Source: Planctomycetota bacterium (GTDB taxonomy: Bacteria; Planctomycetota; UBA8108; SXIK01). From it: a DNA stretch of 64,000 bases. Position numbers and translations under genes: made by a program. This document shows, piece by piece, positions 11,216 through 37,103 of the stretch. The number at the start of each line of letters is the position of its first letter. Position 1 is the first letter of the stretch. The notes below the pieces were generated by a model. It ran no database searches and was not told the DNA's origin. It worked only from the letters and a program-made list of their open reading frames with translations. Where the stretch lies: NCBI GenBank assembly GCA_965223845.1, contig CBDCXR010000004.1, positions 320,001-384,000 of the forward strand. The letters run 5' to 3'.

Positions 11216-11770
11216 GTGGATCTGACGAGAATCTTGGAGTCCGCTCGATCGGGAGACCCTTCCGCTCGGGCAGAGATCGTCCGCGCCGCGTACGAGGACC
11301 TGCGCAAGATCGCGAAGGTCAAGATGGCGAACGAGCGAGACGGTCACACTCTCAGCGCGACTGCCCTCGCGAACGAGCTCGCGATCAAGCTGATGGGCGA
11401 CAGCCAGATTCCGGTGGCGGGCCGTCCGCAATTCATGGCGTACGTGTCGAAGGCGATGCGTCACTTCCTCATCGACTACGCTCGCACGCGGGGCCGGCAG
11501 AAGCGCGGCGGCGATCGCGAGAGGCTGACGTTCGACGACGCACTCGTCGCGAGTCGCGAGCAGAGCGAGGATTTGCTCCGACTTCACGAAGCGCTCGAGC
11601 GATTCGCCGCGATCGACGCACGCAAGGCGAGCGTCGTCGAGATGCGGTTCTTCGGTGGAATGAATCTCGAAGAGACGGCCTACTCGCTCGGCGTCTCGCC
11701 CGCGACGGTCAAGCGGGACTGGGACGTCGCGAAGGCGTGGCTGAAGCGGGAGCTCGCGGGGGAGGAGTGA
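11216..11770 (+). CDS. ECF sigma factor, TIGR02999 (planctomycete/verrucomicrobial) type
   Basis: Y.DLRKIA...HTLSATAL, AMRHFLIDYAR....QKRGG, VVEMRFFGG...EETA..LGVS.ATVKRDW..AKAWL. Confidence 0.92.
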   Translation: MDLTRILESARSGDPSARAEIVRAAYEDLRKIAKVKMANERDGHTLSATALANELAIKLMGDSQIPVAGRPQFMAYVSKAMRHFLIDYARTRGRQKRGGDRERLTFDDALVASREQSEDLLRLHEALERFAAIDARKASVVEMRFFGGMNLEETAYSLGVSPATVKRDWDVAKAWLKRELAGEE

Positions 11771-14597: not shown

Positions 14598-15215
14598 CTA
14601 GATCTTCGAGACTCTCAGGCGTCGATATTCCCCGTGCTCGCCGATGCCGTCACCGCCGCACTCCCAGAACCCGATCGCGCCCCGGGCGTGGTGTGCGTGT
14701 GGGTCGGTCCACTCGGCGCAAGGATCGAGCTCACCGTTCGGAGGTCCCAAGAAGACGCGAATCGTCGAGCCTTCGATCTCGACGCGCATGCGGTACCACT
14801 CGCCGAGGACGGGCACTCGCGCGCTCGCGATGAGCTCGCGGAACATCCTGCCGCCGTTCTCGTCCGCGGACTCGTCCTGTTCGCTCAACCGAGGACCGAC
14901 GAACGCGTGGAACCACACCTTGTCGGCGTTCGGCCCGGGACCGCCCGCGTCTCCGATGTCGAACTGCGCGAGATAGTAGTCGCGGTTCGATGTGTGGCGG
15001 AGCACGAATCCGGCGGCGCCCGAGACGATGCGGACGTCGGCCTCCATCGAGACGTCGACGAAGTCATCGCGCTTCGTAGTCACGATTGCGAACTCGCAAG
15101 TCTTCGGCGCGAAATCGAGGATCCCGTTCCGCACCGTCGCGGCTCGGTGAGGAGTCCAAGCGCTCGAGAGCGCGTCGCCGGCGAAGTCGTCTTCGAAAAG
15201 TAACGTGGCGCTCAT
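14598..15215 (-). CDS. DUF1080/concanavalin-like beta-sandwich protein
   Basis: LLFEDDF start; EWYRMRVEIEGSTIRVF and GAIGFW...EYRRLRV motifs; ATGA overlap with the stop of the upstream gene. Confidence 0.6.
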   Translation of the reverse strand: MSATLLFEDDFAGDALSSAWTPHRAATVRNGILDFAPKTCEFAIVTTKRDDFVDVSMEADVRIVSGAAGFVLRHTSNRDYYLAQFDIGDAGGPGPNADKVWFHAFVGPRLSEQDESADENGGRMFRELIASARVPVLGEWYRMRVEIEGSTIRVFLGPPNGELDPCAEWTDPHAHHARGAIGFWECGGDGIGEHGEYRRLRVSKI

Positions 15216-16366
15216 TCGAGGCGATCGGCTCGTGGGTCTAGTTTGTGCGCCGGACCCACTTCCCACTCGACCAGAGCGTCGAATGGAACAATTCGGTCGG
15301 GTGCTTCCTCCGGCCAGCGAAAACGACCCGATCCGAGGAGCCGCAGCGACGTCAGTTTGGTGGTCGAGATGTCGTAGACGCCGCGCCCTTCGAGTGCGAG
15401 CCGCTGCTCGGATAGGATCTTCCCCCGGCGAATCACGCGCTCCGACGCGAGCGCTCCTTCGTACCGAATTTCCGCAATCGATCCGCTGACCCGCGCAACG
15501 GTCGCACGGAGGCGGATCTCCGTCACCCAGTCGGGTTGGGGCGCGTGCTGGTAGCACATCGGCGAGGCGATCCGGCAAAGTCTTTTCGCGACGCTCGCCG
15601 GCACCTCCCACGAATCACCGGCGGCGATGTCTTCGCCCGTCTTCGCGAGCGGCGCAAAGGCGGCGAACTCGGGCGGCGTAAGATCGACACTCGAGATGAC
15701 CGGCGTCCGGATCTTGTCGCGATCCCGGCGCCGGACGTACTCGGCGAGCGTGACGCTCCCGTCCGGCCGAACGCCCTTCCCGCGAAAGGGCTGTGTGTCG
15801 ACGACCGACCTCTTCGCGGGCGTCACCGGTCCGTGTTTCTCCAGCGCCTCGTCGACAAGTCGAAGCGTTTTCCGAACCATGTCGCCGAATCCAGAGAGCG
15901 GCCCGGCGAGGACCTCGCCGTCGGGGGAGAGGATCCAAACGCCCTGCTTGTCCCCACGCTTCCGGATGTACGGACGAAGAAGGCGCGACTCTTTCGACTT
16001 GCGCCGTTGGAACTTTTCGTAGTCGACCGCGAGCGGAACGAGCGTGCCCGCGATGCGGCGAATCACCTTTTCGTTGACGAGCACGTTCTCACGGAACATG
16101 CGTGCGAACGTTCAGCAATCGTCGAGCGGGTCACCGGTGACGAGGTAGAGGAAGATCGGGCGCTTCTCTTTCGTCGCCGCGAGAAATGCATCTGAAACGT
16201 CCGTCAACCACGGGATTTCGAGGAAGCGCAACTCGGCCGCGGTCGCGCGGATCGCATCTGCCTTCGTCTCGAGATCCGGTGCATCCTCGCCGCGAGCCGG
16301 CGCGGCGAGAAGCGCGGCACTCAAAAAGAAGCAGCCGATCGTCTCTCGACGAAAACGAGGGTTCAT
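15212..16366 (-). CDS. Exported SelN-like thioredoxin-fold selenoprotein candidate (384 aa, in-frame TGA = U85)
   Basis: ORFs 16112..16441 and 15212..16099 are in the same frame, joined by TGC TGA ACG TTC GCA CGC ATG, giving RPIFLYLVTGDPLDDC-U-TFARMFRENVL. GGAGG RBS and signal peptide from ATG 16366; hairpin directly 3' of the TGA. Confidence 0.82.
16083..16111 (-). promoter_or_regulatory. Candidate SECIS hairpin after UGA 16112-16114
   Basis: ACGTTC-G-CACG-[CATGTTC]-CGTG-A-GAACGT: 6-bp plus 4-bp stems starting at the first base after UGA, with GU in the loop. Confidence 0.7.
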
Positions 16367-16712
16367 CGAACGTCCTCCGCACCGGCGATTGCGAAATTCA
16401 AGACTCGTCTCGATTGGACTTCGGGAATCGGGCTCGATCAAGTGCGATCCGTCTCAACCTGCCGCGCGTGCGCTCCCGCACGCTAAACGAGTGCGCTCCC
16501 GTCCAAAACATCTCCTCGAAGAACCTCGAGATCAAGGGCAACCCTAACTGAGCGCGCCTCCCCTGCTTAGGATTCTCGTTCTCCCTTCCCCTTCGTCTTC
16601 CTGCGCGAACTTCGTGTGCACCTCTTCCTCCTTTTCTTCCCTTTCGTCGGAAAGATCCACCGCGCAGCGATCGACTCTAATCTGAGCCCCCGCGCAGAGA
16701 GAGGATTCGAAC

Positions 16713-17195
16713 GTGACCGACTGGGACGAACTCGTGCGCACGCACGGCCCGAGCGCCTACGGCGTCGCCTGGCGGATTCTCGGCCACGCCGAGGACGTCG
16801 AGGATGTCGTTCAGGAGCTCTTCGTCGAGTGCTACCGCGTCGCCCGGTCGCGACGCGTCGAGCACTGGCGCTCGTTCATCGTTCGACTCGCCACCTTTCG
16901 CGCGCTCGACAAGCTGCGGCAGCGTCGGCCCGCGCTCGGGCTCGATTCCTTCTCGGTGATCGACCCCCAATCGGGGCCGGAGGACGAAGCCGCCGCGAGG
17001 GAGTCGGTTGCACAGCTCCGGGTCGCGGTCGCGGCACTTCCCGAGCGCCAGGCCACGGTCTTCTGCCTTCGCTATTTCGAGGAGCTGACGCCGAGCGAGA
17101 TCGCGCGCACGCTCGCGATCTCGCCGAACGCCGTCTCGCTCGCGCTCCACAAAGCCCGCGAGCATCTCCGGGATCGGTTTGCTGAGGTCAACTAG
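16713..17195 (+). CDS. ECF sigma factor (sigma-70 group 4)
   Basis: AWRILG...D.EDVVQE.F; region 4 LPERQ..VF.LRYFEELT..EIA.TL.IS...V...LHKAR..LR; GAGAGG RBS. Confidence 0.92.
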   Translation: MTDWDELVRTHGPSAYGVAWRILGHAEDVEDVVQELFVECYRVARSRRVEHWRSFIVRLATFRALDKLRQRRPALGLDSFSVIDPQSGPEDEAAARESVAQLRVAVAALPERQATVFCLRYFEELTPSEIARTLAISPNAVSLALHKAREHLRDRFAEVN

Positions 17196-17241
17196 ACTGC
17201 GATGAAGGAATTCACACGATCGAGCACCGGGAGAGTTTGCA

Positions 17242-19020
17242 ATGAGTCGTGATTCGGTCAGCGGCAATCCACTCGAAGGAAGACTCCGCGAAGCGGTTCG
17301 GCGGGTCCGGAGCTCGCCCATTCCCGACGCGTCGCTCTCACGCGCGCTCGATCGAGCCGCCGCCATCGCGGCTAACGCGAAAGTCGACGAAGCAGCGCCC
17401 GGGCCGGATTCGACTCGGCCCCGAGCGGTGGACATTCGAGCGATCGGCTGGTTCGCCGCGATCGCGGCATCGATCCTAGCAGTCGTGCTTCTCTTCTTCG
17501 CGTCCGCCTCACCGCGCGAGGGGCTCGCCGAGGTCGTTCGCGCCTTCGCCGAGAAGGATTGGGTTCATGTGAAGTCGCGCGACGTCGAGCGCGGCGAAGT
17601 TCCGCGCGAGGCAGAGATTTGGTTTTCCACTCGGAACCGCATTCACTTTCGTCGCGATGCCGAGTGGATCGAGATGCACGACCACCAGAGTGAGGTTTCG
17701 CTGTCGTACAATCGGCGCGAGAACCGGCTCGTGCGCGTTCCTTACGGAGAGATCGCGACTCCGTTCTATTCGAGCGTGTTCGACGTGATGCGCGCACTTT
17801 TCGAGGTGAACGAAGACGTCGAGAACCCGCTCGCCCTCGTTGCGGAGCTCGACGATGATCTCGCCGGTATCGAGTTTGTCGCCGGCGGGCGCACGACGGT
17901 CGAGGAAGAGGGTCGCACACTCACGGAGTTTCGCATCGAGGCGCGACACCCGCGGGTTTCGGGTCCGCTCTCGATCGTCGTTCGCGCGGACGCGACGTCT
18001 CTCCTCCCTGAGTCCGTCGACCTGTCCGGCTCGCTCGACGGGTCCGCCTTTCGATCGTCCGCGTTCTTCTCCTACCCGGATCCAGGGCCGAGCGACGTCT
18101 ACTCGGTTGGCGTCCCGCGTGGTACTCCGGTCGCAGAACGGCGACCCGAAGTCGACGTGTCGGCCGTCGCCGAGGGAATGCGGCGAGCTAGGCGAGAGTT
18201 CGACGACCACCTCACGATCTCGGTCTCGCGGCTCGTCACGCCGGGATCCGCGAACGCCTGGTGGTTGGGCCACCCGGTGATCTTCTACCGAAAAGGAGAC
18301 CTGTTCCGCGTCGATTTCGTGCGCTTGTCGGCGAGTGGCACTCCGAGGCTGGAGCGGCCCCCGAACGACGCGGATCCTGAATCGTGGTGGAGAGAGCGCG
18401 TTCGCGCCCTCAGCTTTGCGCCGAAGGTCATCCTCTCGGACGACAAAGCCTACTGGCTTCGCGACGTCGACCCGCGGTCGCCCGAACCGAAGGTCCGGGT
18501 CGAGCACGTCGATGAGAAGTACCCGTTTTCGTTCCGTTCCGAGTTTTTCCTCCCGCCCTACTGCGGTTGGGCGCCCGAGTTCATTGCCCGTCCCTCGCTC
18601 GGCATTCCGGATCGAACGCGCGCGCTCTTCCTTCGACCCTCGCCTCTGGAGGTCGCTCCTCGGGCGCTCCAAATGCGCCTCGAGCCGCGGCCGCGATTGC
18701 GCGAAGCGAGGAGCGAGGGACGAGAGAAGCACCGTTCGCTCGCGGTAGGGGATTTTTGGGTCGATCCCACTCGCGGCTTTGCGGTGGTGAAGAGTGATTG
18801 GCTGGTTGTCGAGGAGTTCGCTGAGACACCTGCCGGTGGATGGTATCCGCGCGTCGTCCGTGAGCCGCGCACCGCCCGGTCAAGATCGGGCTCGCCGCGC
18901 GAAGAAACCGATTTCGACTCTCTGCGGACGTTCTATGTCGACTTCGACACGAAACTTCCGGACGAGCTCTTCGACCCGAACGCGCCGCTTGTTGGCGCAG
19001 AGGCGTTTTCGACCAATTGA
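17242..19020 (+). CDS. Putative anti-sigma factor (single TM, large extracytoplasmic domain)
   Basis: Directly downstream of the ECF; short N-terminal domain, TM WFAAIAASILAVVLLFFA, then LAEVVRAF....WVHV and DVDF...PDELF-type sequence typical of LolA-like periplasmic domains. The function is inferred from position. Confidence 0.6.
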   Translation: MSRDSVSGNPLEGRLREAVRRVRSSPIPDASLSRALDRAAAIAANAKVDEAAPGPDSTRPRAVDIRAIGWFAAIAASILAVVLLFFASASPREGLAEVVRAFAEKDWVHVKSRDVERGEVPREAEIWFSTRNRIHFRRDAEWIEMHDHQSEVSLSYNRRENRLVRVPYGEIATPFYSSVFDVMRALFEVNEDVENPLALVAELDDDLAGIEFVAGGRTTVEEEGRTLTEFRIEARHPRVSGPLSIVVRADATSLLPESVDLSGSLDGSAFRSSAFFSYPDPGPSDVYSVGVPRGTPVAERRPEVDVSAVAEGMRRARREFDDHLTISVSRLVTPGSANAWWLGHPVIFYRKGDLFRVDFVRLSASGTPRLERPPNDADPESWWRERVRALSFAPKVILSDDKAYWLRDVDPRSPEPKVRVEHVDEKYPFSFRSEFFLPPYCGWAPEFIARPSLGIPDRTRALFLRPSPLEVAPRALQMRLEPRPRLREARSEGREKHRSLAVGDFWVDPTRGFAVVKSDWLVVEEFAETPAGGWYPRVVREPRTARSRSGSPREETDFDSLRTFYVDFDTKLPDELFDPNAPLVGAEAFSTN

Positions 19021-19041
19021 AGCTAGTGAGTGAGTATCACC

Positions 19042-20235
19042 ATGCTGAGACCTTTCCCGCGCGTGCTCGTGTTGGCGGCGTTGATTACCTCGAGCGTCAG
19101 CTCCGAAGAGACCGCGGCCGCGGATCCCGAGGAGATCTTTCGCGAGTTGAAGAGCGAGTGGGACGAACGCGGACGCAAAGAAACGGAGCCCCTTCGCCGC
19201 GCCGAAGGAGACGAACGCCTGCGGATCCGAGACGAGCTCTTTCGACGCTACCGGGCGTCGGCGCCGCGCTACGCGAGCAAGTTCTTGCGTCTCGCTGAGG
19301 ACGCACCGAATCACCCGATCGCCGTCGATGCACTTCTTTGGGTCGTATCGAACTTGAACTCGATGCCGGAAGCGGATCGAGCGGTCGAAGTGCTCACCGA
19401 GCGCTACATCGACGATCCGAAGGTGGTCTCTTACATCCTCCGTCTCGGACACTGGGTCTATCCCGCCGATGAGCCGCTTCTTCGCGCGCTCGCCAGTGCG
19501 ACCGACCGCCGCGAAGTTCGCGGCGTGGCGATGTTTCGTCTCGGCGAGACGCTCGCCACGAAATCGGTCTGGGCGCGGCAGCTGAAGCTCGATCCGTCGG
19601 GAACACTGGACGACTTCATCGCGAAGCCGCGCGCACTCGGACCGGGCGTTCTCGCGCATCTCGAGTCACTCGACGCCGACGCGCTCGAAACCGAAGCGGC
19701 GAGTCTGTTCGAAGAGATCGCTGAGAAGTTCGCGGACGTCACGCACGGTGCCGCGACGCTCGGCGTCGCTGCTACCCGCGAACTCGACGAGATGAGGCGT
19801 CTCGCGATCGGAAAACCCGCGCCTGAGGTCAGTGGGGAAGACATCGATGGTGTGAGATTCAAGCTGAGTGACTACCGCGGAAAAGTCGTCGTTCTTTCCT
19901 TTTGGGGGCACTGGTGAGGACCGTGCCGGGTCAAGTACCCCGCCGAGCGGTCGCTCGTCACTCGCCTCAAAGATCGACCCTTTGCCCTCCTCGGAGTGAA
20001 CAGCGATGAAGATCGCGAGAAGCTCAAAAAGACGATTCGGACCGAGAAGATCACCTGGCGGTCGTGGTGGGACGGTGGAAGCACTCGAGGGCCGATCGCC
20101 CGCGCTTGGAACGTCACCGGGTGGCCGACGACGTACGTGATCGACGCGCGCGGGGTGATCCGGTTCAAGTTCGTGTTCACGGACTCGGTGGGACCGATCG
20201 TGGATGCGTTGCTTGAGGAGGTGAAGGAACGGTGA
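19042..20235 (+). CDS. Exported TlpA/redoxin-family selenoprotein candidate (UxxC; in-frame TGA at 19915-19917)
   Basis: IGKPAPEVSGEDIDG..FKLSDYRGKVVVLSFWGHW-TGA-GPCRVKYPAERSLVTRLKDRPFALLGVNSD...WNVTGWPTTYVIDARGVIR: a complete TlpA domain spans the TGA, which sits at the first Cys position of WCxxC. Alternative start GTG 19030. Confidence 0.93.
19918..19952 (+). promoter_or_regulatory. Candidate SECIS hairpin after UGA 19915-19917
   Basis: GACCG(19919-23) pairs with CGGTC(19948-52); upper stem GCCGGGT-[CAAGT]-ACCCCGC with one C-C mismatch; GU in the apical loop. Confidence 0.7.
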
Positions 20236-20240
20236 CGAGC

Positions 20241-20264
20241 GGGAGCGGGAACGGGAACGGGAAC
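20241..20264 (+). repeat. Intergenic hexamer repeat GGGAGC(GGGAAC)3, which matches a G3N3 x4 G-quadruplex motif
   Basis: GGGAGCGGGAACGGGAACGGGAAC read directly. Confidence 0.85.
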
Positions 20265-20299
20265 GCGGCACGAAAGATCCTTCGCCACGGGAGAGATTC

Positions 20300-21439
20300 A
20301 TGGACATTTCGGCTCAGACGATCGCAGGTCGGTCAGCTCAACACCAGATCGAACGCGCGATTCGTGCTTCGATCGTTGCCGTCGTCCTCGTCGTCGCTGG
20401 TCGCGCACTCGGGGGCGACTCACCGAGCTCGCGATGGACTCGGTCGACCGTCTTTCGCGGGAGTGAGTTTCCGTTCGTCGGCGTCGCATTCAGCGCAGAC
20501 TCGAAAACGCTCGTCGCGAGCGACCGTGCGTCCGTGCGCGTCTGGGACGTTGGTGCGCCGGAGCCCAGGATCGTACTGCCGGGGAAACAGCAGACGAAGA
20601 GTGGGCTCGACGCGCCGCCTCGCGGGCGACCGCGGGAGGTGCCGTCGAGATTCGGCACGATTGCAATCTCTCCGGACGGCCGACGGATCGCGACGGGGGG
20701 ACTCCCCGCGCGAGTCACTCTTTGGAACGTCGAGACGGGGATGATCTCAAGGCAGCTCGAAGCCGAGGGCTCGATTCGGTCGTTCGCGTTTTCTCCGAAC
20801 GGCGAGCAGCTCGCCGCAGGTGTCGACCTCGGCGCGGCCGGAAACTACGTCCAGGTGTGGAACACGGCCGACTGGTCGGAGCGAGGAGTGTTGAAGGGAC
20901 ACCGCGGCCGCGAGAGTCCGCTCCGCGGCGGAACGATCGAGAGTCTCGCGTACTCGGGAGACGGGAATCTCCTCGTTTCGGGGAGCTGGGACGGCACGGT
21001 CAAGCTTTGGGATACGCAAGCGATGCGCGAGCTGAAGGCGATCCCGCACGAACACCCGGTCGTCCGGGTCGATCTTTCGTCCGACGGAAAGACTCTCGTT
21101 TCGTCTCAGTGGAAGCGAGTCCCATCGAAGCCGGGTCGATACGAAGCGTGCTTCACCAAGATCTGGGATCTCGATTCGGGGCGAGCGGATCGCACGCTCG
21201 AAGACACGAAACTCGTCTATGGAGTGAAGTTCTTCCCGGACGCGACGAAAGTCGCGACGGGAACGCAGGATCGCCTTCTGCGAATCTGGGACACCCGGTC
21301 GGGCCGTGAGCTCGAAGCGCTGCGTCACGACGCGATGATACGGGCGTTCGCGATCGCGCCAAACGGTCGATCGATCGCGGTGGCTTCTCACGATCGCACG
21401 GTGGTCTTGTGGACTCGGACGCGAAACGGTGGGCCGTGA
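20300..21439 (+). CDS. Exported WD40-repeat protein
   Basis: Repeated AFSPDG...ASG..D.TV.LWD units; N-terminal hydrophobic segment; GGAGAG RBS. Confidence 0.9.
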   Translation: MDISAQTIAGRSAQHQIERAIRASIVAVVLVVAGRALGGDSPSSRWTRSTVFRGSEFPFVGVAFSADSKTLVASDRASVRVWDVGAPEPRIVLPGKQQTKSGLDAPPRGRPREVPSRFGTIAISPDGRRIATGGLPARVTLWNVETGMISRQLEAEGSIRSFAFSPNGEQLAAGVDLGAAGNYVQVWNTADWSERGVLKGHRGRESPLRGGTIESLAYSGDGNLLVSGSWDGTVKLWDTQAMRELKAIPHEHPVVRVDLSSDGKTLVSSQWKRVPSKPGRYEACFTKIWDLDSGRADRTLEDTKLVYGVKFFPDATKVATGTQDRLLRIWDTRSGRELEALRHDAMIRAFAIAPNGRSIAVASHDRTVVLWTRTRNGGP

Positions 21440-21554
21440 TCGTACTGTGACGGTGAGGTTGTATCGTAACGATGATCGAAACCGGGGACTGTGACACGGT
21501 GTCGCGCGGGTTCAACGAATCCCGTAGGGTGAACCGAGGAGTCAGGTTGATTCC

Positions 21555-22022
21555 ATGGCTCAACGCTTTTTTGATCGCCGCACTCTCGTCCTCGGACTAA
21601 CCGCCGCGGTGTGCGCCTACGGAATCGGCGAGGGGATCGTGGCTCCGGACGATCCCACGGGCGACCCCGTCGACCGATCCTTAGGCGCCGTCTGGGCGGA
21701 AGTGGTTCACCGGGTCGAGTCCGTCTCCCGCGACGACGTTTTTTCCGTCTACCGAGACGCGATCGCCCATCTGGAGCTCGTGTCGGACGAAGGGGCGGTG
21801 GAGTTTTTTTTCGACCGCATCGAAGCCGGCGGCGATGACTGCTTGACCGCAGGTAAGCTGCTCTGTTGGGTGAACGAGTTGTGTTCGTACCGGCCTCGAA
21901 TCGGGCTCCCTGCCCACGTTCGATTCGGATGGGACGGCGTGGAGGGTGAGTGCGGCGAGTATCTCTACGAGGTCCTACCTCGTCGAACCCCGGACGTGTT
22001 ACGTCGGAGAACCGAGCGATGA
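21555..22022 (+). CDS. Hypothetical exported protein
   Basis: GAGGAG RBS; DRRTLV followed by a hydrophobic stretch (possibly Tat-like); ATGA overlap with the next gene. Confidence 0.55.
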   Translation: MAQRFFDRRTLVLGLTAAVCAYGIGEGIVAPDDPTGDPVDRSLGAVWAEVVHRVESVSRDDVFSVYRDAIAHLELVSDEGAVEFFFDRIEAGGDDCLTAGKLLCWVNELCSYRPRIGLPAHVRFGWDGVEGECGEYLYEVLPRRTPDVLRRRTER

Positions 22023-22510
22023 CCACCGATTCGCCAGTTCGCCGATCGTTGAGCGCGATCTTGCTGGGGGTGCTCGTTGGCGGAGGTGTCTTCGCCGCAC
22101 TCCGCTGGGAGCGCTGCGTCGAGCGCTGGAATCTGCGTGCGCTCGAATCGCCGGAGCTCTCCGTGAAAGCACTGGCCGCGCTTCGACTCTCGCGAATCGG
22201 ATCGGAAAGCGCGATTCGCGGACTGGTGCGCGCCATTCGTTCCGATCCGACCGAACGGGCGTGTTTGTCCTTCCTTCCGCTCAACGCCCCAAACGTCCAA
22301 ACCTGCGGCGGCCATTGGCTATCGCTTCCTCCGATGACGTACGCACTCTATCTCGCCGGTCCCGCGATGGATTCCGTCCTCGCGGAAGAGATCCGAGCGA
22401 TTCCCTATGGCGAGGGCGCTCCGACTTTGAACCTCGTGCGCCGCAGCTGGGAGTTCGACTGGACGGTCGACCTCCAGGATCCGTCGAAGTGGGATGATTG
22501 GGGTGACTGA
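22019..22510 (+). CDS. Membrane-anchored protein with a single HEAT-like repeat
   Basis: N-terminal TM, then AALRLSRIGSESAIRGLV; translationally coupled to the upstream gene. Confidence 0.6.
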   Translation: MTTDSPVRRSLSAILLGVLVGGGVFAALRWERCVERWNLRALESPELSVKALAALRLSRIGSESAIRGLVRAIRSDPTERACLSFLPLNAPNVQTCGGHWLSLPPMTYALYLAGPAMDSVLAEEIRAIPYGEGAPTLNLVRRSWEFDWTVDLQDPSKWDDWGD

Positions 22511-22571
22511 TTCGTAGTCTTGAGCACCGCCCAGTCCCTCGGCATTCGAGCTCGGAACTGCCCCATCCCCA

Positions 22572-22946
22572 TCATCGCCGCCGCCCGCGCCGCGGCTTCG
22601 CCGCCACCTGCCAGCCATCGCAGTACACCACGATTCCCGGGTCCGCGCAGGTGTGCATACGAACCGGCACGCCGTGTTCCCGAAGCAGGGCCGCGACGCT
22701 TCGCGTCTTCGCCATCGGCCGCGTTGCGTGCGGGCGAAACCAGCAGATCGCTCGGCGATTCTCCCAGTCGTCGAGACACGCCGGGACCTTGAGGTGCATG
22801 TTGAGCCAAGCGAGATCCTCACGAAACCAGTCGATCTCGTAAGCCTCGAGGGCTCCGGCGTTCTCCAGTATCCCGGCGGCGTGGATCACTCCGAGGAGTG
22901 ATCCCGAATCGCGATCGATCTCTTGTGTGGTGAAGCGAACGTACAC
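22572..22946 (-). CDS. Hypothetical protein
   Basis: Protein-like composition from GTG 22946 (YVRF...G...GVIHAA...WLN.HL.VP...AICWFR...PG.VVY.D.WQV.A.P). Confidence 0.65.
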   Translation of the reverse strand: MYVRFTTQEIDRDSGSLLGVIHAAGILENAGALEAYEIDWFREDLAWLNMHLKVPACLDDWENRRAICWFRPHATRPMAKTRSVAALLREHGVPVRMHTCADPGIVVYCDGWQVAAKPRRGRRR

Positions 22947-23221
22947 GGTTCTTTCCCGCGGGCGAACCCATCGAACGAGACTTTGAAGCGGCTCCGCACG
23001 GCGCGAAGAAATGAACGAGACGGCGCTCCTTCGGGAGATCTTGCGGAAAAAAGTCGTGTTCTCTTCGTTCGCTCGCAATTCTGGTCGGAGCCACGCGCCT
23101 CCTCGAGGGCTCTCTTTTTCTCGTGGTCTCGGATACGCTTGACCGAAACGCGCTGCGCCCGGATCGAGAAGATCCGGGGCCGCCGAACTGCGCACCTCCG
23201 AGCTCGAGGAGAGAGACGACC

Positions 23222-28687: not shown

Positions 28688-28821
28688 TCGCCGCCGGGCG
28701 AAGCGATGCTGGACCGGCGTCCGGAGCGAGCGAGTTTCCGCTCCCGTGGGCCTCGGCCATCCGCTATCGTTGCTGAGAGCGGTATTGCCGGTGTTCGAAG
28801 GTCGGTCGGACGGAAGCGGAC

Positions 28822-31662
28822 ATGAGTTTTGCTAAGCGATTCTGCGTCGTCGCCTTTCTCGTTTTTGGGTTGGGACTGAGAGCGGACGCCGACATTCTGA
28901 CGCCGGCCGAAGTCCGCGCGACGAGCCAGTTCGGACTCGGGATCGAGATCGACAATCTCGTCAACGGCTCGGGGCTCGACGGCGAGGGTCCGATCGAGGG
29001 ACAGCTCCACAACAACGATCCAAATCATATGTGGTTCGCGGGCTGTGCGGACGCCGGCATCGAGGGCGGGACGCCCGACGGCGGGTGCGACGACCCGTTC
29101 GCGCTCGCGCCGGTTGACGAGCAGATCGTCGAGTTCGAGCTCGACGCGACCTACGCGCTGAGCTCGGCTCTCGTGTGGCAGTACAACGAGCTCAATCCGA
29201 ACGGTGGTCCGTTTCCCGGGCGAGGCGTGAAGAAGTTCGAGCTGCAGATCTCGCCGACCCTCACGGATCCGTTCACGATTCTCGGCGAGGTCGAGCTCGA
29301 GATCGCGGAGCCCGACCCGACGCCGGGTGTGTTCTCCGAAGCCGCGCAGATCGTTCTGTTCGCGGGCGACCCCCTCGTAAGGCGGGTGCGTTTTCGGCTT
29401 CTTGAAGCACACAGCGGCGACTCGCCCGAGTTCATCGGGCTCTCCGAAGTGAGGTTCGACGGGGTGCCGACGTTCGGTCCGTTGCCGCCTCGCGTGACGC
29501 GGTTCCTCTCGCGGAGTACCTTCACGGACTCGTCGACGCCGGTGAGCGTAAGACTCGACGTCACCGTCGAGCCCGACACCGGGCCGTTCGAGATCGCCCT
29601 TGTCGAGAACTTGCGGGACGGCTGGACGGCGACCGACATCTCGGACGGCGGAAGCGTCGCGGAAGGGACCGTGAGCTGGATGCTCTCCGCAGTCGCTGAG
29701 AGCACGACTCTCTCGTACACGCTCGTACCCGACGACGTGACGATGACGCCAGTCGAGCTGTCGGGATCGTTCATCGTCGACGGCGGCGACTTCACGGGCG
29801 ACGTCGCCGGGGATCGACATCTCACTTGGTCGGAGAGCGCGCCCGCAATCACGGCGCAGCCCCAAGGCGGGAGGGTGATCGTGGGAGGCTCGTTCACGTT
29901 CTCCGTTGAAGTGACGGGGTCGGAGCCGATCAGCTTTCAATGGGAGAAGGACGAGGAGGCGATCGATGGTGCGACGGAGCGCGAGCTCGTCCTCACCGAT
30001 GTCGCCTTCGAGGACGCCGGCGAGTACTCGGTCGTGGTGAGCAACGCCGAGGACGTCATCGTGAGCGATTTCGCGCTCCTCGAAGTCACACCGCCGAATC
30101 TCGCGCTCTGCGGAATCGCGACTCAGTCGACGACGCTTTTCGACAGCGTCGCGTCGCGCGCGATCGACGGCAGCACGGACGGCAGTACCGATGCCGTGAC
30201 GCACACGACGTTCGGGGATCCCGTTCCGTGGTGGGAAGTGAGACTCGGCGCGAGCGCGACGATCGACACGATCGTCTTGTGGAACCGAAACGAGCTTCCC
30301 GAGCGCCTCTCGAACTTCACGGTCTCCGTGCTCACCGTCGATCGTGAGGTCGTGTGGAGCGACGAGTTCTTCCCCGAGGGGGCGAACCCGCCGTTTCCCG
30401 ATCCCGCGAGCGGCGGATTCGCGATCGACATCGGCGTCGAGGGGCGGATCGTTCGCGTCGAGAAGGGCGAGAGCGTCAACCTAACGCAAATCGGCCAGTT
30501 CCTTTCGCTCGCGGAAGTCGAGGTGTTCGGAACGGAGGCGTGCACCCCCGAGCCGGATCCCGAGTGTCCGGCAGACGGTGATCCCGACTTCGGCGATACG
30601 CACTGCGGCTCGATTGCGATCGAGGGACCGGACGGAAACGCTGTCGGCGACTATCTCGTCACGGCGCAGGGCACCGACGACAGCGGCGACACGGTCCATT
30701 ACACGTTTACGGCGGTCCACCAGGTCTACGGAACGACGCACACGCGCGGTCCGCACGCGGTTCCTTGGGCTTATCTCCCGCTCACGTACGGAGCGTGGGA
30801 CGTCACGGTCACCGCTGACGACTTCTCTTCGTGCGACGATGAGGCCGTCGACGCAACGTGCACGGACACCGTGACGGTGACCGATCCGACTTGCGTCGAG
30901 GGCGAGCTCTGCAACGTCGCGATCCGCGGTCTCGCGAGTCAGTCGTCTATCTTTCTCTATGAGGCACGGCTCGCGATCGATGGGAACACGGACGGAAACC
31001 TCAACAACAACACCGTGACCCACACCGGCTTCGACGACCCCGCGCCCACGTGGGAAGTCGAGCTCGATCGGGACTACGCGATCGAGAGAATCGTCCTTTG
31101 GAACCGGACGGATTGCTGCTCCGAGCGCCTGACGAACTTCGCCGTGACGCTTTTCGACGCGAACGGCGACGAGGTCTGTCGAGAGGAGTTTTTCACGGAC
31201 GGCACGGAGTTCCCGGACACCATGGTCGAGGGCTTCGCCGTCGAGCTCGAGGGGGAAGTGGGGCGCACCGTGCAAGTGGCGCTACAGAACACGCATCCGG
31301 GATTCAATCAAAGCCAGTTCTTTCTCTCGCTCGCTGAGGTTCAGATCTTCGCCGAGGACGAGGGGATGCCGCCGGTCGAGTTCCGTCGCGGCGACGTCAA
31401 CGACGACGCCGGCGTGAACATCGCGGACGCGATTTTCGTCCTCAACGATCTCTTCGGTGACGGCCGATCCTCGACTTGCGCGGAGACTCAGGACGTGAAC
31501 GGCGATGCGGCGGTGAACATCGCCGACGCGGTGTTTCTTCTCAACAACCTCTTCGGGACGGGGCCGTCTCCGATCGACGGCGCGGGCGAGAAGGGGACGG
31601 ATTGCGGACCCGATCCGAATCCGGCCAACTCGCTCGGCTGCGAGACGTACACGAGCTGCTGA
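28822..31662 (+). CDS. Secreted multi-domain protein: discoidin-like domain, Ig-like domain, two fucolectin/F5-8-type domains, dockerin-like tail
   Basis: Signal peptide; PAITAQPQ...FQWEKD...DAGEYSVVVSN (Ig); two NxA..G.A.QS...A..AIDG...VTHT...W.V.L...IVLWNR...ERL.NF...LSLAEV units; FRRGDVNDD tail. Confidence 0.85.
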   Translation: MSFAKRFCVVAFLVFGLGLRADADILTPAEVRATSQFGLGIEIDNLVNGSGLDGEGPIEGQLHNNDPNHMWFAGCADAGIEGGTPDGGCDDPFALAPVDEQIVEFELDATYALSSALVWQYNELNPNGGPFPGRGVKKFELQISPTLTDPFTILGEVELEIAEPDPTPGVFSEAAQIVLFAGDPLVRRVRFRLLEAHSGDSPEFIGLSEVRFDGVPTFGPLPPRVTRFLSRSTFTDSSTPVSVRLDVTVEPDTGPFEIALVENLRDGWTATDISDGGSVAEGTVSWMLSAVAESTTLSYTLVPDDVTMTPVELSGSFIVDGGDFTGDVAGDRHLTWSESAPAITAQPQGGRVIVGGSFTFSVEVTGSEPISFQWEKDEEAIDGATERELVLTDVAFEDAGEYSVVVSNAEDVIVSDFALLEVTPPNLALCGIATQSTTLFDSVASRAIDGSTDGSTDAVTHTTFGDPVPWWEVRLGASATIDTIVLWNRNELPERLSNFTVSVLTVDREVVWSDEFFPEGANPPFPDPASGGFAIDIGVEGRIVRVEKGESVNLTQIGQFLSLAEVEVFGTEACTPEPDPECPADGDPDFGDTHCGSIAIEGPDGNAVGDYLVTAQGTDDSGDTVHYTFTAVHQVYGTTHTRGPHAVPWAYLPLTYGAWDVTVTADDFSSCDDEAVDATCTDTVTVTDPTCVEGELCNVAIRGLASQSSIFLYEARLAIDGNTDGNLNNNTVTHTGFDDPAPTWEVELDRDYAIERIVLWNRTDCCSERLTNFAVTLFDANGDEVCREEFFTDGTEFPDTMVEGFAVELEGEVGRTVQVALQNTHPGFNQSQFFLSLAEVQIFAEDEGMPPVEFRRGDVNDDAGVNIADAIFVLNDLFGDGRSSTCAETQDVNGDAAVNIADAVFLLNNLFGTGPSPIDGAGEKGTDCGPDPNPANSLGCETYTSC

Positions 31663-31668
31663 TTCGCG

Positions 31669-32700
31669 TCAGCGCGGAGGTTTCGCGGGAAGCGCCATCC
31701 TCTCGACGAGGTCGCGGAAGCGCGTATCGTCGCGGAGCTCATCGAACCACGGCTCCTCGCGAACGAAGACGAGCTCCCAAGCGCGCTCGCGGTAGGCTTC
31801 CTCGAGGAGCTCGTACGCGCGTTGCTTCTCGCGGAGACCGACGCAGATATAGGCGCGCTGAACGGGCGGAACGTGCCAGCGTTCGGCGGCGCGTTCGAGC
31901 TCCTCGAGAACCGCGCGCGCTTCGGTTTCGCGACCGGCTTCCGCGTAGGCGTGACCGAGTCCCGCGTACACTTCTGCCGTCTTGTCCGAAAGGCGAGCGG
32001 CCGTCTCGTAGGTCGGGATCGCTTCGTCGAAGGCGTTCAGCTCGACGTAGGCCATCCCGAGCCAGTCGTGCGCCCACGGCGACGCCGGATCGATGGCGAT
32101 GACGTCTCGTAAATGGTCGCGCATGGTGGCGAATTCGCGCGCAAAGTAGAGGACGGCAGCCTTTCCGATCTTGAAGCCGAGCTCATCCGGCGCGAGCTCC
32201 GTCGCGCGCGTCGACTCCGCGATCGCCCGAGGGTGATCTCCCATCGCAGCGAGATAGAGTGCGTACCAGTGCCGCGCTCTTGCGTCCGTCGGGTCGAGAC
32301 GAATCGCGTGTTCGAGAGAGAGCCGCGCTCCGTCCCAGTCCCAATCGCAGAGCCGGACGATCCCGAGTGCGACGTGCGCCGCAGCGACATCGCTTCCTAA
32401 TTCGGTGGCGCGATTCGCGGCGTCTCTCGCGCGCGGGAGAGCTCCTTCACGCGAGTAGTACCCGAAGCACCAAAGGGTCGCGAATGCTTCGGCGACGCCG
32501 GCGTGTGCCCGAGCGTCGTTCGGGTTTCGCTCGAGTGTCTCTTCGTGGAGCGCGACGACGCCTTCGAACGCTCGGCGATACTCTCCGCCGAGGGACGGCG
32601 CAGGCTCGCGGTGGATGGGATCGCTCGGCGCGTCGACAACCGGCGAACAAGCGGCGGCGGTGAGGGCGACGACGAGAACGAAGAGTCGGCGTTTCTTCAT
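31669..32700 (-). CDS. TPR-repeat lipoprotein
   Basis: Lipobox AAAC; TPR units; C-terminal V..EPWFDELRDD.RF.DL..RM.L resembling the TPR tails of TolB-like/adenylate-cyclase-type proteins. Confidence 0.8.
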   Translation of the reverse strand: MKKRRLFVLVVALTAAACSPVVDAPSDPIHREPAPSLGGEYRRAFEGVVALHEETLERNPNDARAHAGVAEAFATLWCFGYYSREGALPRARDAANRATELGSDVAAAHVALGIVRLCDWDWDGARLSLEHAIRLDPTDARARHWYALYLAAMGDHPRAIAESTRATELAPDELGFKIGKAAVLYFAREFATMRDHLRDVIAIDPASPWAHDWLGMAYVELNAFDEAIPTYETAARLSDKTAEVYAGLGHAYAEAGRETEARAVLEELERAAERWHVPPVQRAYICVGLREKQRAYELLEEAYRERAWELVFVREEPWFDELRDDTRFRDLVERMALPAKPPR

Positions 32701-32816
32701 CGGATGGGCTCGTTCGCCCTACCTTTGTGGACGGCTCGGGTACACTGGAAGCTCGTCGATGGCCGAGGATCTCTCGTTGCCGTTTCGGCTCAACATCGGA
32801 AGGTGGATCGTCCGGG

Positions 32817-35800
32817 ATGACGGAACAGAAGTCGAGAGCACGATTCCTTCTTGCGGGGATTGCGCTCGTGGCCGCTGCAGTCGCGATCGTTGTCGTCTTC
32901 GATCGAGGCCGACGAGAGGAGAGGACTCCCCCGGTCGAACTCGCCGAAGGCGACGATTCGGCTCCGCCGGCAGAATCCGAGAAGGACGGCGATCGGCTCG
33001 AATTCCGCAGCGCGGACGAGGCGCGCGCGTTTGTCGCGCGTGCGAAGTCGTCGCTCGCCCGTCAACCGGGCGATGCGCGCCTTCACCGACAGCTCGGAAC
33101 GGCCCTGAGCGCGCTCGGTGAGCGAGACGACGCGCTCGCTCACTACGGCCGAGCCGTAGAGCTCGCGCCGAGCGACGCCGAAGCGCAGAACGATTTCGCC
33201 GTACTTCTGGCCGCGAGCGGGCAGATCGAGCGGGCCATGGCGCACTTTCGCGCGGCGATCCGCGTCGACCCCGATCACGCCGAGAGTCGAGTCAATCTCG
33301 GGAATACGCTCGTCGTTCAGAGAAAGTTTGCGGAGGCGATCCCGCACTTTCGCCGTGCGATCGCAGTGCGGCCGGACTACGCGAAGGCGCACAACAACCT
33401 CGCCGTCGCTCTCAAGGAAACGGGGAGTATCGACGAGGCGCACGTCCACCTTCGTGAGGCGATGCGTTTCCGTCGCGAGCAGGCGGCGTCGACGTCTCGC
33501 GACTCTCCGGCCGTCGCGGAGAGACGAGAGGGCGCCGAAGATTCCGCGGATTCGCGAAGAGCAGCGGAGCGCGACGCCGAGGGTGTCGCGGCGATGACGA
33601 CGCGACGCATCGAGTCGGAGCGAGCGTCGGCCGCGACCGCTCTCGATCCGAGCTCCGACGGCTGGGAGTCGGAAGCGGTCGCCGAAACGGCGAAAGCGCG
33701 GCTCGAGCGACTCGCCGCACTCCTCTCGGGTCCGGGACCGATCGACCCGACGAGCTTCGACGGCCTCGTCTCCGCCGATCCCGAGTCGACGGAGTTCGAC
33801 GGGAAACTCGAGGAGGCGTACCGCGACGCGGTCCTCACCGTGCGCCGTCGAGCGGCGCCCGTCACGAAAGAGGATCGGGTGAACCGAGGGCGCGCATCGC
33901 TCGCGAAAGCACTCGAAACGCTCGCGGCGCCGCTCCGTGGAGCGAGCGATGTCGAAACGCACGTAAAGATCGTCCGCGTCGATCTCGCCGGCGATTCCGT
34001 CGCTACCCTCGCGTACTTCGACGCGAGTGGTCGTACGGGCGCGGGTGCAGTCGGAGTTCGCGATGTATGGCGATGCCGCTGGGCGCGAGAGAACGGTGAG
34101 CTGCTTCTCGATTCTCTGAGTTCGGACGACTACGAACGGATCGACGCTCGCGGATCCCGGTGGTTCACCGACTGTACGGCGGCGGTTCTCGGAGCGAACG
34201 ACTCGTTCGAGCGCCAGCTCGTTCCCGGACTCAACCACTGGCTCGCCCGCATCGAGCGGGTCCACAGCATGCACGTCTTCGCGCGTTACGGACTCGCGGT
34301 CGGCGACGTCAACGGCGACGATCTCGACGATGTCTACGTGTGTCAGCCGGGCGGTCTCCCGAATCGGCTCTACGTGCAGAACGCGGACGGGACGGCGAGC
34401 GACACCTCCGCGGCCGCCGGGGTCGACTGGCTCGACCACACGAGCAGCGCGCTCCTCGTCGATCTCGACGGTGATGGCGATCAGGATCTCGTCGCGGCGA
34501 CGATCTTCGGACTCATCCTCATGGCGAATGACGGGCGGGGCTCGTTCGCTCGTCGCGCGGTTCTTGCGCCGCGCGACATCGATCTCCACTCTCTGAGCGC
34601 CGCGGATTACGACGGCGACGGAGACCTCGACCTCTACATCTGTACGGACTTCGCGCAGGAAGTCGCACGCCCCGGGGCAGGAACGGGATTCGTTTACCAC
34701 GACGCGAACGATGGCGGAGCGAATCTTCTCTTTCGAAACGACATCGCGTCGAGCGAGGACGGGGCGTCGGTCGAGGGTGGGGCGACTTGGTCGTTTACCG
34801 ACGTCACGAAGGACGTCGGGCTCGACGTCGACAACCGCCGGCACAGCCTCGCGGCGGCGTGGGAGGACTACGACAATGACGGCGATCCCGACCTCTACGT
34901 CGCGAACGACTACGGTCAAAACTGCCTCTACCGAAACGACGGCGGACGCTTCGTGAACGTCGCTCGCCAGGCGGGCGTCGTCGATTTCGGCTCGGGAATG
35001 TCGGTGAGCTGGGCCGACTTCAACCGCGACGGTCGCTTGGATATCTACGTCGGGAACATGTTCTCCTCGGCGGGAAATCGCATCACGCGCCAGCTCGGCT
35101 TCAAACCCGGCGTGAACGAGACGACGCGCGAACTCTACCGCCGTTTCGCGAAGGGAAACTCCCTCTTCGAGAACATTGGCGGCGGCACGTTCCGCGAGGT
35201 GGGCGCGGAAGCGGGCGTCGAGATGGGGCGCTGGGCGTGGAGCTCCGTGTTCGCGGACATCAACAGCGACGGCTGGGACGATCTCCTCGTCGCGAACGGC
35301 TACATCACGACGGAAGACACCGGCGACTTGTGAAGCTTTTTCTGGCGACAGGTCGTGTCGCACGGACGAGTCGCAGTGAGGGACGTGCCGTCGAGCGGGG
35401 GCGCGGCGACCGCCGGCACTCGGCTCCACGATTTCATCCGGCGGGGACGCTCCTTTAGTGGTCGAGAGCGAAACTGCTGCTTTCTCAATACGGGGCGCGC
35501 CGCGCGCCGGTTCGCGGATGTCTCCACCGTGAGCGGGTTCGACTTCGCCGACGACGCCCGTGCGATCGCGCGCGTCGATTGGGATCACGACGGCGACCTA
35601 GACTTTTGGGTCGCGAACCGAAGCGGGCCGCAAGTGCGCTTTCTCCGCAACGATGTTCCTCGTGCCGGTCGATCGATCTCGCTCGCTCTAGTCGGCACTC
35701 GCTCGAATCGCGACGCGATCGGAGCGCGCGTCGAGATGGTCTTCGCAAATGAGGCGCATCCGAAGCTCGTCCGCTCGCTCCGCGCGGGAGACGGCTTTCT

Positions 35801-37103
35801 CGCGCAGTCGACCAAGTGGCTTCACTTCGGGCTCGGGGAGGCGACCGAGATCGAACGCGTCACGGTGCGGTGGCCGAACGGTGAGGAGGAGGACTTCCGT
35901 GACGTCCGCGCGGGCGGACGCTTCCGTTTGGTGGAAGGACGCGGCGTCGCCGAAGCGTCGCCGAAGCGTCAGCCAGGCGTGCGGCTTGTCGAGACTCCGC
36001 CTCGCGAGTTCACCTCTCGTGAGCCGCGGCGCGTCGTCTCGCGAGCGCGGCTTCCTGTACCCATACTCGAGTACGACGACTTTGACGGCGAGCCGCGATC
36101 GGTGTTTCGCGCCGCCGATGAGGACGCGACCGGCGCGACCGAACCCCGCGCGATGCTTCTCGTTCTGTGGGCGAGCTGGTGCCCGCCGTGCATCCTCGAG
36201 CTCCGCGAGATCGCCGAACGCGCGGGAGATCTTCGCGCAGCCGGTCTCGACGTCGTCGCGCTCTCGGTCGACGGGCTCGCGGAGAAGCCGGGACGCTCGC
36301 CGGCGGAGCTTAGTGACATCATCGCGCAGACCGAGTTTCCGTTCGCAGCGGGCCTCGCTCGCGAGCGCACGCTCGAACGCCTCGAGCGCGTTCACGATCG
36401 ACTCTTCGATCTTCGTCGGCGATTCCCCGTTCCCGTGAGCTTCCTCATCGACGGACGAGGCGAGCTCCTTACGATCTATCGCGGTCGTCTCGGAGTCGAC
36501 GCGCTCCTTCACGACGTGGAGCGGGCGAAGACGCGTACGCTTCGCGCGAGTGCACTCCCGTTCTCGGGTCGGTGGCTGCGCGAACCTGGGCGCTTGAGTC
36601 CCTTCACACTCGTCTGGGAGCTGCTCGCAGGCGGCGACGCACATGCCGGAATCCGGTACTTCGCGAAGCACCACGATCTCCTCCGCGCGCACGTCCGATT
36701 TCCGCAGCTCGCCGTGCTCGCGGGAAACGCACGGCTCTCGCGCGGAGACGTCCGAGCGGCGATGGCGCTCTACCGCGAAGCCATCGCGCGCGACGCGGAA
36801 TACGTCGATGCGCAGAACAACCTCGCGTGGGTGCTCGCGACCCACGCGGAAGACGGCGTCCGCGACGGTGCCGAGGCGGTGCGACTCGCGCAGTCGGCGC
36901 TCCAGAAGTCAGAGGGCAGGTTGACTTCGGTGTGGAACACCCTCGCCGCCGCGCTCGCAGAGGCGGGAGACTTCCCGCGGGCGATCGAAGTGGCCGAGCG
37001 AGCCCTCGAGCTCGCGCGCGACCGCGAGCAGGGCGAGCTCGCCGAAACGATCGAGCGCCGGCTCGCGCTCTACCGAAACCATCTCCCGTACAGATCCCGG
37101 TGA
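32817..37103 (+). CDS. Membrane-anchored TPR + FG-GAP/CRTAC1 + ASPIC/UnbV + TlpA + TPR protein; selenoprotein candidate (1428 aa, in-frame TGA = U839)
   Basis: ORFs ..35333 and 35355.. are in the same frame: ANGYITTEDTGDL-TGA-SFFWRQVVS. The CRTAC1-type propeller continues across the TGA (SFSGRERN..FLN, DWDHDGDLD), followed by SNRDAIGARV...LHFGLG...VRWP (ASPIC/UnbV), WASWCPPC (TlpA) and TPRs. A strong hairpin follows the TGA. Confidence 0.82.
35341..35366 (+). promoter_or_regulatory. Candidate SECIS hairpin after UGA 35331-35333
   Basis: TCTG-GCGACA-[GGTCG]-TGTCGC-A-CGGA: a perfect 6-bp upper stem starts 11 nt after UGA, and CAGGUC resembles the apical sequence of the E. coli fdhF SECIS. Confidence 0.78.

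Follow-up and report, generated by a model that had tools for sequence, protein, structure and literature searches.

Background

Selenocysteine (Sec) decoding is itself textbook biology, and propellers of the CRTAC1 type are calcium-binding, adhesion-like proteins; we know of no catalysis by such propellers, nor, in bacteria and animals alike, of any biochemical role for the CRTAC1/ASPIC fold. The locus described here concerns both subjects. It lies within a stretch of 64,000 nucleotides, hereafter the window, which comprises positions 320001-384000 of the largest contig (CBDCXR010000004.1) in the 7.93 Mb genome (65% G+C; GCA_965223845.1) of a Planctomycetota bacterium. Three neighbouring genes in this window each contain a single in-frame TGA, at 16112-16114 on the minus strand (gene 1), 19915-19917 on the plus strand (gene 2) and 35331-35333 on the plus strand (gene 3), exactly where an earlier sequence-only reading had placed three candidate Sec codons. 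Taken as a whole, our observations are best explained if the three TGAs are Sec codons that are decoded by the usual bacterial route, in genes whose products are extracytoplasmic, and we consider this very probable.

Among the closest described systems are selenoproteins with thioredoxin-like folds. Table 1 of a 2026 review, which holds 119 prokaryotic selenoprotein families and subfamilies, includes redoxin selenoproteins with UxxC or UxxU active sites (Prx-like thiol:disulfide oxidoreductases and thiol-disulfide isomerase-like proteins; PF00578, cd02966, PF08534) and subfamilies with CxU or CU, for instance thioredoxin-like Sec.1 (PF13192) (PMC13188914). Selenoproteins of Planctomycetes have been found by homology to known families (PMC4807772). 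As far as that 119-family table extends, it contains no FG-GAP, UnbV/ASPIC or CRTAC1 selenoprotein and no entry for the family of gene 1 (PMC13188914). There is no NCBIfam model for the core of gene 1 or gene 3, and a full-text literature search for selenoproteins with UnbV, FG-GAP, CRTAC1, ASPIC or VCBS domains gave nothing relevant among the papers listed. By this comparison genes 1 and 3 represent new selenoprotein families, and gene 2 is of a kind already catalogued.

Sec machinery and conservation of the TGA codons

Reading TGA as Sec (U) joins pairs of open reading frames (ORFs) into continuous frames at 15212-16441 on the minus strand (gene 1, 409 residues) and at 19030-20235 (gene 2, 401 residues) and 32727-37103 (gene 3, 1458 residues) on the plus strand, and each of these closes with another TGA. 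Since TGA is the normal and also the commonest stop codon in this genome, where it terminates 1646 of 2589 long ORFs in addition to genes 1, 2 and 3, its reading as an amino acid must be local, and genome-wide reassignment of TGA is excluded. The machinery of Sec incorporation is complete. Judged against NCBIfam cut-offs, all of which are exceeded, this genome has matches to the profiles of selA (536 bits, cut-off 268), selB (320 bits, or 352.7 with in-frame neighbours, cut-off 242) and selD (308 bits, cut-off 125), and ARAGORN identifies a tRNA-Sec with the anticodon tca. The sole strong selD match is an ORF of 784 residues (L010:1390-3744, minus strand, which is G000:C4 ~5317130-5319484) in which an N-terminal Pyr_redox_2 domain (pyridine-nucleotide-disulfide oxidoreductase) is fused to the AIRS and AIRS_C domains of SelD, with no in-frame TGA; SelD fusions of this kind have been described before.

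Among 61 related genomes, 58 possess selA. The sole essentially complete genome without it (G059, 99% complete) contains redoxin matches that are free of TGA and no homologs of gene 1 or gene 3; it provides a small negative control, in which the TGA forms go with the Sec machinery. Assembly error is at odds with the data: the window from 16000 to 35500 recurs with no differences in Logan contigs, which were built independently from four runs of a single sample that may be the source sample, and the three TGAs are therefore not the errors of one assembler.

Given that TGA so commonly ends genes here, the three codons might be ordinary stops; the region would then contain six genes in place of three, or three that nonsense mutations have disrupted. 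A start codon does occur 5 to 27 codons past each TGA, and public gene calls keep the pieces as separate proteins. Against this, whenever the aligned column holds a stop codon in relatives that codon is TGA and never TAA or TAG (20 of 20 loci in each family, and 74 of 77 loci in a larger sample of gene 3, described below). Peptide conservation and predicted secondary structure continue unbroken over the TGA, uninterrupted homologs have a sense codon in the same column, the same supposed break would have to recur in eight gene 3 paralogs of one genome, and the assembly has been independently reproduced. We therefore regard ordinary termination as exceedingly improbable.

Translation of the TGA by some means other than Sec, whether by near-cognate insertion of Trp or Cys or by leaky termination stimulated by a hairpin, would accommodate the high variability of the gene 3 column, in which S, A, N, G, E, C and other residues occur and many may be tolerable. 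It does not readily explain why the genome contains complete Sec machinery or why that machinery tracks the TGA forms among relatives. Nor does it account for the position of the codon at the active site of a thioredoxin fold in genes 1 and 2, for hairpins at the distance of a bacterial selenocysteine insertion sequence (SECIS), or for the conserved partner cysteine that accompanies the TGA of gene 3. We judge read-through of this kind to be very unlikely. It is most likely that each of the three genes reads one UGA as Sec, and we infer that selenium is incorporated into all three proteins.

A probable CRTAC1-like selenoprotein family

Gene 3 (32817-37103, plus strand) encodes 1428 residues from the ATG at 32817 to the stop TGA at 37101-37103. 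The protein consists, in order, of a membrane anchor, TPR repeats, an FG-GAP propeller, an UnbV_ASPIC domain, a TlpA-like domain with a CPPC motif, and further TPR repeats. The core has the domains of CRTAC1 and of bacterial ASPIC/UnbV FG-GAP proteins; Pfam returns FG-GAP_3 at 127 bits, above its cut-off, and UnbV_ASPIC at 63.1 bits (cut-off 23.4), and murine CRTAC1 (9etn) is matched both in sequence (E 1.7e-11) and in fold (E 5.7e-29; template modelling scores 0.64 and 0.72). Unlike CRTAC1, gene 3 combines this core with Sec and a partner cysteine, with TPR and TlpA-like CPPC fusions, and with a membrane anchor. The candidate Sec codon at 35331-35333 corresponds to U869 in the motif DL-U-SFFWRQVV. 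In an AlphaFold2 model of residues 480-1100, with a predicted local distance difference test (pLDDT) score of 84.6, U falls between a strand (385-388) and a helix (390-398, in the numbering of the core model) and is the first residue of that helix.

The family to which gene 3 belongs is large. A scan of species-representative genomes yielded at least 583 confirmed relatives, and TGA forms are present in Planctomycetota, Verrucomicrobiota and Acidobacteriota. Among the best 80 of these 583, 77 carry the motif around U869, with TGA in 74 cases, a sense codon in three (Ala, Ser and Tyr) and no TAA or TAG. One TGA is present in each of the best 81 match rows among the relatives, the codon is aligned in all 20 relatives' loci, and this genome contains eight paralogs with TGA in the same column. 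In the databases, the gene 3 of the window is represented by an N-terminal piece of 838 residues.

Downstream of the TGA is a SECIS-like hairpin (35345-35361, plus strand; GCGACA-GGUCG-UGUCGC), which occupies nucleotides 15-31 counted from the U of UGA and presents the apical loop GGUCG at nucleotides 21-25, with G22 and U23. Over 94 sequences, 98.6% of the cells of the family hairpin GCGRCA-GGUCG-UGUCGC are paired. Compensatory changes on both sides occur at three of the six pairs, and the observed values were reached by none of 500 shuffles. The three forms in which the TGA is replaced by a sense codon retain a near-identical peptide and lack the hairpin, which means that the hairpin is not a by-product of the protein sequence.

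Forty-eight residues past the Sec position is a candidate resolving cysteine, Cys917 (35475-35477, plus strand; ERN-C-CFLN). In a first sample the corresponding position holds Cys in 19 of 20 Sec forms (20 of 20 counting the next residue), in 3 of 4 forms with Cys at the Sec column and in 7 of 59 others; in a second sample it does so in 69 of 74 Sec forms and in none of three non-Sec forms. Cys917 goes with Sec in the pattern that would be expected of a resolving cysteine, and this suggests a selenenylsulfide couple. The TlpA-like domain, at approximately residues 1141-1247, carries the CPPC motif at residues 1152-1155 (36180-36191, plus strand).

Homologs without an interruption are also numerous. 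From 120 gene 3 homologs listed, 65 carry the motif uninterrupted and the other 55 are distant or truncated. Within these 65 the Sec column is occupied mostly by Ser (22 sequences) or Ala (22) and by Cys in only 4, the rest being N, G, E, Y, D, Q or R. Of the two new selenoprotein families in the window, that of gene 3 is the more interesting, on account of its fold, its many paralogs and its Ser and Ala homologs.

Thioredoxin-fold proteins encoded by genes 1 and 2

Gene 1 (15212-16366, minus strand; 384 residues from the ATG at 16366, stop TGA at 15212-15214) encodes an N-terminus resembling a signal peptide, then a thioredoxin-fold domain in which Cys and Sec are vicinal (DDCUTF), and finally a beta-rich domain. 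Neither this protein nor either of two relatives scores above the cut-off of any Pfam or NCBIfam family; Thioredoxin_7 scores 16.8 bits against gene 1 (Pfam cut-off 27), Thioredox_DsbH scores 16.1 bits against one relative (cut-off 27), and neither PF13192 nor any NCBIfam model matches gene 1. An AlphaFold2 model based on 25 sequences (pLDDT 86.6) contains a thioredoxin fold at residues 44-182 that runs through U, preceded by a disordered, signal-peptide-like N-terminus and followed by a beta-rich domain of about 190 residues. The Cys-Sec pair occupies residues 84-85, counted from the ATG, so that the codon at 16112-16114 specifies residue 85, directly behind strand 1 and where helix 1 (86-94) begins.

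Structural comparison of the N-terminal domain retrieves the DsbD-like exported domain 3f9u (Z 14.3), DsbH (2ju5, Z 12.5) and DsbD-gamma (1vrs, Z 10.2); AGR3 is also near in fold, and Foldseek adds matches to 7tkv and 3ira. The beta-rich domain obtained no structural match in searches with the whole model, and was never searched as an isolated domain. The fold superposes on those of 3f9u, DsbH and DsbD-gamma, and Sec lies where these folds have CxxC. From exported folds of the DsbD-gamma, DsbH and Thioredoxin_7 types and from the tabulated CxU and CU subfamilies, gene 1 differs in having a vicinal C-U (C-x-U in relatives) in place of CxxC, an added beta-rich domain with no recognised fold, sequence matches that fall below the cut-offs or are absent, and a small family. 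On the strength of the model, gene 1 is predicted to be an exported thioredoxin-fold protein of the DsbD-gamma/DsbH type, with the Cys-Sec pair as its active site.

The relatives of gene 1 support a coding function for the TGA. Exactly one TGA occurs in 60 of 61 match rows (61 genomes), all 20 aligned loci have the codon in the same column, mostly as GHPLGCTU (CxU), and two paralogs in this genome have TGA in the same place. Of 18 sequences that are continuous over the site, 6 have Cys in place of Sec, as CC or SC. Among 1.84 billion cluster representatives only 233 relatives emerged, and of 150 listed, at least 23 stop exactly at residue 109, just before the TGA, while seven start at residue 115, the first ATG past it. 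Ends and starts at these residues are the mark of gene calling that has cut genes in two at the TGA; together with the N-terminal piece by which gene 3 is known, they bear out the expectation of the sequence-only reading that standard annotation would split such genes.

The SECIS-like hairpin of gene 1 (16072-16110, minus strand) has an inner stem GCAUGUUC/GAACGUGC that, with its loop, spans 16081-16101. The apical loop, CGUGA, occupies nucleotides 22-26 when the U of UGA is nucleotide 1, with G23 and U24, and recurs with identical sequence and position on differing stems in the related loci L016, L025 and L027-L029.

Gene 2 (19042-20235, plus strand; 397 residues from the ATG at 19042, stop TGA at 20233-20235) encodes a signal-peptide-like N-terminus, a region of 250 residues and a redoxin domain of the TlpA/ResA type with the motif WUGPC. 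The codon at 19915-19917 (plus strand) specifies U296, whose aligned counterpart in solved TlpA/ResA-family structures is the first Cys of WCxPC (WCPPC or WCGPC in 3kcm and 2yp6). Pfam AhpC-TSA (PF00578) covers residues 260-379, across U296, at 78 bits (cut-off 26), and Redoxin (PF08534) matches at 61.8 bits (cut-off 26.6). These matches, and UGPC on the attacking Cys, place gene 2 beside the Prx-like and redoxin selenoproteins; it differs from them in its N-terminal 250-residue region, which has no family match, and in falling short of the cut-offs of NCBIfam selenoprotein models (36.3 of 300 bits for WAxxUGC_long, NF041054; 18.1 of 100 bits for TUGYCR, NF053656). Gene 2 is predicted to be a thiol:disulfide oxidoreductase of the TlpA/ResA type with Sec in place of the attacking Cys, and this is the kind that has been catalogued already.

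The motif FWG[DH]WUGPCR, with TGA, is present in all 20 gene 2 loci that were fetched, and matches free of TGA were also found among relatives. Two paralogs of gene 2 in this genome have TGA at the aligned column and six have Cys; in all three families, then, relatives keep TGA at the aligned column and Cys forms exist. A later paralog scan added two more Sec-redoxins. One of the first two paralogs contains two active-site TGAs (G000:C4 7394230 and the third codon past it, outside the window) in the motif FW..F-U-LM-U, and is thus a redoxin of the tabulated UxxU kind. Upstream of gene 2, and separated from it by 10-22 nucleotides according to the choice of its start, is an ORF of 592 residues (17242-19020, plus strand), hydrophobic in one segment around residue 70 and unmatched in Pfam, which may be co-transcribed with the Sec-redoxin.

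The SECIS-like hairpin conserved in gene 2 (19944-19957, plus strand; CGAGC-GGUC-GCUCG) spans nucleotides 30-43 from the U of UGA, and all 19 relatives have ACGAGC-GGUC-GCUCGU in that position. When this sequence is folded by itself, the structure of minimum energy contains a different hairpin, at 19928-19940 with the loop CAAGU at nucleotides 18-22, which is the one that the sequence-only reading described.

All three proteins have N-termini of an export type, in accordance with the earlier proposal of a signal peptide or anchor in each. Genes 1 and 2 begin with a charged n-region and then 14-16 residues without charge, in the manner of a signal peptide, and gene 3 with a single hydrophobic anchor of 19 residues; we infer from these features that all three are exported. 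The same proposal called the three architectures unrelated; they are not wholly so, since a thioredoxin-fold domain is common to all three.

Hairpins and the strength of the evidence

We propose that SelB, with Sec-tRNA(Sec), would be recruited by the in-frame hairpin just past each UGA. The arrangement resembles the E. coli fdhF SECIS in having an in-frame hairpin that starts 11-30 nucleotides past UGA and a loop G-U approximately 22-37 nucleotides from the U, and in the GGUC-type loops of genes 2 and 3. It differs in the loop CGUGA of gene 1, and in that no Rfam family matches anywhere in the window at its gathering score. The sequence-only reading had described hairpins with GU in the loop close behind each TGA, which holds for genes 1 and 3; in gene 2 the hairpin that relatives conserve is situated beyond the one it pointed out. 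A hairpin 3' of the UGA is conserved in each of the three families, and covariation has been demonstrated for gene 3 only.

Several observations weigh against our interpretation, first with respect to Sec decoding and then with respect to catalysis by gene 3. Although the hairpins exist and are conserved in relatives, their folding energies are no better than those of shuffled sequences (z = -0.63, -0.98 and -0.07 for the three genes). Among 5000 random coding positions, 8.9% have behind them a hairpin with a stem of at least 5 bp, GU in the loop and the G at nucleotides 16-30, as do 148 of 1646 terminal TGAs; widening the range for G to nucleotides 16-40 raises the figure for random coding positions to 15.2%. 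Hairpins by themselves are weak evidence, and their conservation across genomes is what counts. The genomes of the relatives are themselves not independent, so that the counts of conservation, and of Cys917, overstate the number of separate events. Among the sequencing runs listed, no RNA-sequencing run holds the sequence of the window. With regard to gene 3, Cys homologs at the Sec position are the rule for most known selenoproteins, and the predominance of Ser and Ala in their stead is unusual for a catalytic Sec; such homologs show that a redox residue in this position is not essential for the fold to function. Finally, the TlpA-like CPPC domain is also found in Ser and Ala forms, and recycling Sec therefore cannot be its only purpose.

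Selenoprotein content and a possible extracytoplasmic redox network

The suggestion that this genome would be rich in selenoproteins is borne out by a paralog-supported scan, in which at least 16 genes stand as credible Sec genes, eight of them CRTAC1-like, three like gene 1 and five redoxins. Scanning the whole genome for TGAs flanked on either side by coding signal produced 1476 candidates and was far too noisy; candidates were retained only if a paralog spans the site, and 16 is a lower bound, since genes without paralogs are invisible to such a scan. Many TGA-to-TGA alignments were dropped as the natural C-terminal stops of paralogs, for example 31660-31662 in the window and the ends of PSD1-type proteins elsewhere.

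With regard to the function of these proteins, our model is that the products of genes 1, 2 and 3 would act outside the cytoplasm as selenol/thiol oxidoreductases. In gene 3, Sec869 would probably cycle with Cys917 as a selenenylsulfide, and the likely reductant of this centre would be the protein's own C-terminal TlpA-like CPPC domain. More broadly, we tentatively propose, as a possibility that falls somewhat short of an even chance, that in bacteria of the Planctomycetota-Verrucomicrobiota-Chlamydiota (PVC) group and in some Acidobacteriota the CRTAC1-like propellers make up a large family of extracytoplasmic selenoenzymes, so far unrecognised, with a Sec869-Cys917 selenenylsulfide recycled by the fused TlpA-like domain. 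Together with the C-U/C-x-U thioredoxin-fold family of gene 1 and the Sec-redoxins, they would constitute a periplasmic selenium redox system of at least 16 genes per genome, which annotation at present breaks into fragments.

A different view accepts the Sec of gene 3 as real but not as half of a Sec-Cys couple; Sec might instead be a ligand for a metal or metalloid, or a nucleophile for substrate binding, and the three genes would be adjacent by chance. The residues in the Sec column of most uninterrupted homologs, Ser or Ala, are in keeping with this, as is the calcium-binding, adhesion-like character of CRTAC1-type propellers, which are not known to be catalytic. The fact that Cys917 tracks Sec (present in 19 of 20 Sec forms of one sample and in 69 of 74 of the other, and in 7 of 59 other forms) and the fusion of a CPPC thioredoxin-fold domain to the same protein both argue the other way. 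Chance proximity is consistent with the contents of the intervals between the three genes, which are occupied by genes for secreted proteins of unrelated kinds (domains: FG-GAP, F5/8 type C, dockerin or WD40), and with the absence of a single operon, gene 1 being on the opposite strand. It is less easily reconciled with four related genomes (G011, G013, G015 and G019), which have a redoxin gene with TGA some 3 kb away from a gene 3 homolog, on the same contig and strand, or with a second pairing in this genome, of a gene 1 paralog (4375872) and a gene 3 paralog (4395358) that are 19.5 kb apart. On balance, a gene 3 Sec without a redox partner, in a cluster formed by chance, seems to us rather unlikely.

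The two pairings lend some support to a functional link between the families, and an extracytoplasmic redox network, as envisaged by the sequence-only reading, is plausible from the export signals, the thioredoxin folds and the close association of redoxin and gene 3. Because unrelated genes intervene and gene 1 is on the other strand, the network stays hypothetical.

Other features of the window and genome

Between genes 2 and 3 are two further genes for secreted proteins. An ORF of 1854 residues (23123-28687, plus strand) encodes eleven FG-GAP-like repeats, a PPDK_N domain (the ATP-binding domain of pyruvate phosphate dikinase) and a dockerin, a mixture that is odd for a secreted protein. 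The gene at 28822-31662 (plus strand) and its paralogs in the genome encode secreted proteins with F5/8 type C, Ig and dockerin domains that end in ...LGCxxYxxC followed by TGA. These terminal TGAs were considered as Sec candidates and are taken to be natural stops; in the window, a convergent TPR gene (31669-32700, minus strand) ends 7 nucleotides further on. Logan contigs reveal diverged internal repeats of approximately 150-330 nucleotides at 28900-29200 in this F5/8 type C gene. The window also encodes an extracytoplasmic function (ECF) sigma factor of the PF07638 type (11216-11770), and contains no tRNA genes.

Elsewhere in the genome, contig C1 (15,005 bases) has 48% G+C compared with 63-68% in the other three contigs, and may be foreign DNA, a mobile element or contamination. 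The PSD1 domain (PF07587) has 51 matches genome-wide, and none of 14 control genomes was matched. The PSD1 matches and the PF07638-type sigma factor of the window both accord with membership of the PVC group, most likely of Planctomycetota.

Conclusions

The family of gene 3 is large, extends over three phyla and puts Sec into the CRTAC1/ASPIC propeller. Together with the family of gene 1, it has been present in public protein sets as halved and truncated entries. Should the CRTAC1-like proteins indeed be selenoenzymes, they would offer the first catalytic clue for the CRTAC1/ASPIC fold, and the Ser and Ala forms that other Acidobacteriota have would then count as non-catalytic descendants or as precursors. 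A real Sec-Cys couple would turn the role of the CRTAC1/ASPIC propeller into a testable question, and would mean that PVC bacteria possess a substantial hidden extracytoplasmic selenoproteome, which would bear on estimates of selenium demand in the sea and in soil as well as on genome annotation.

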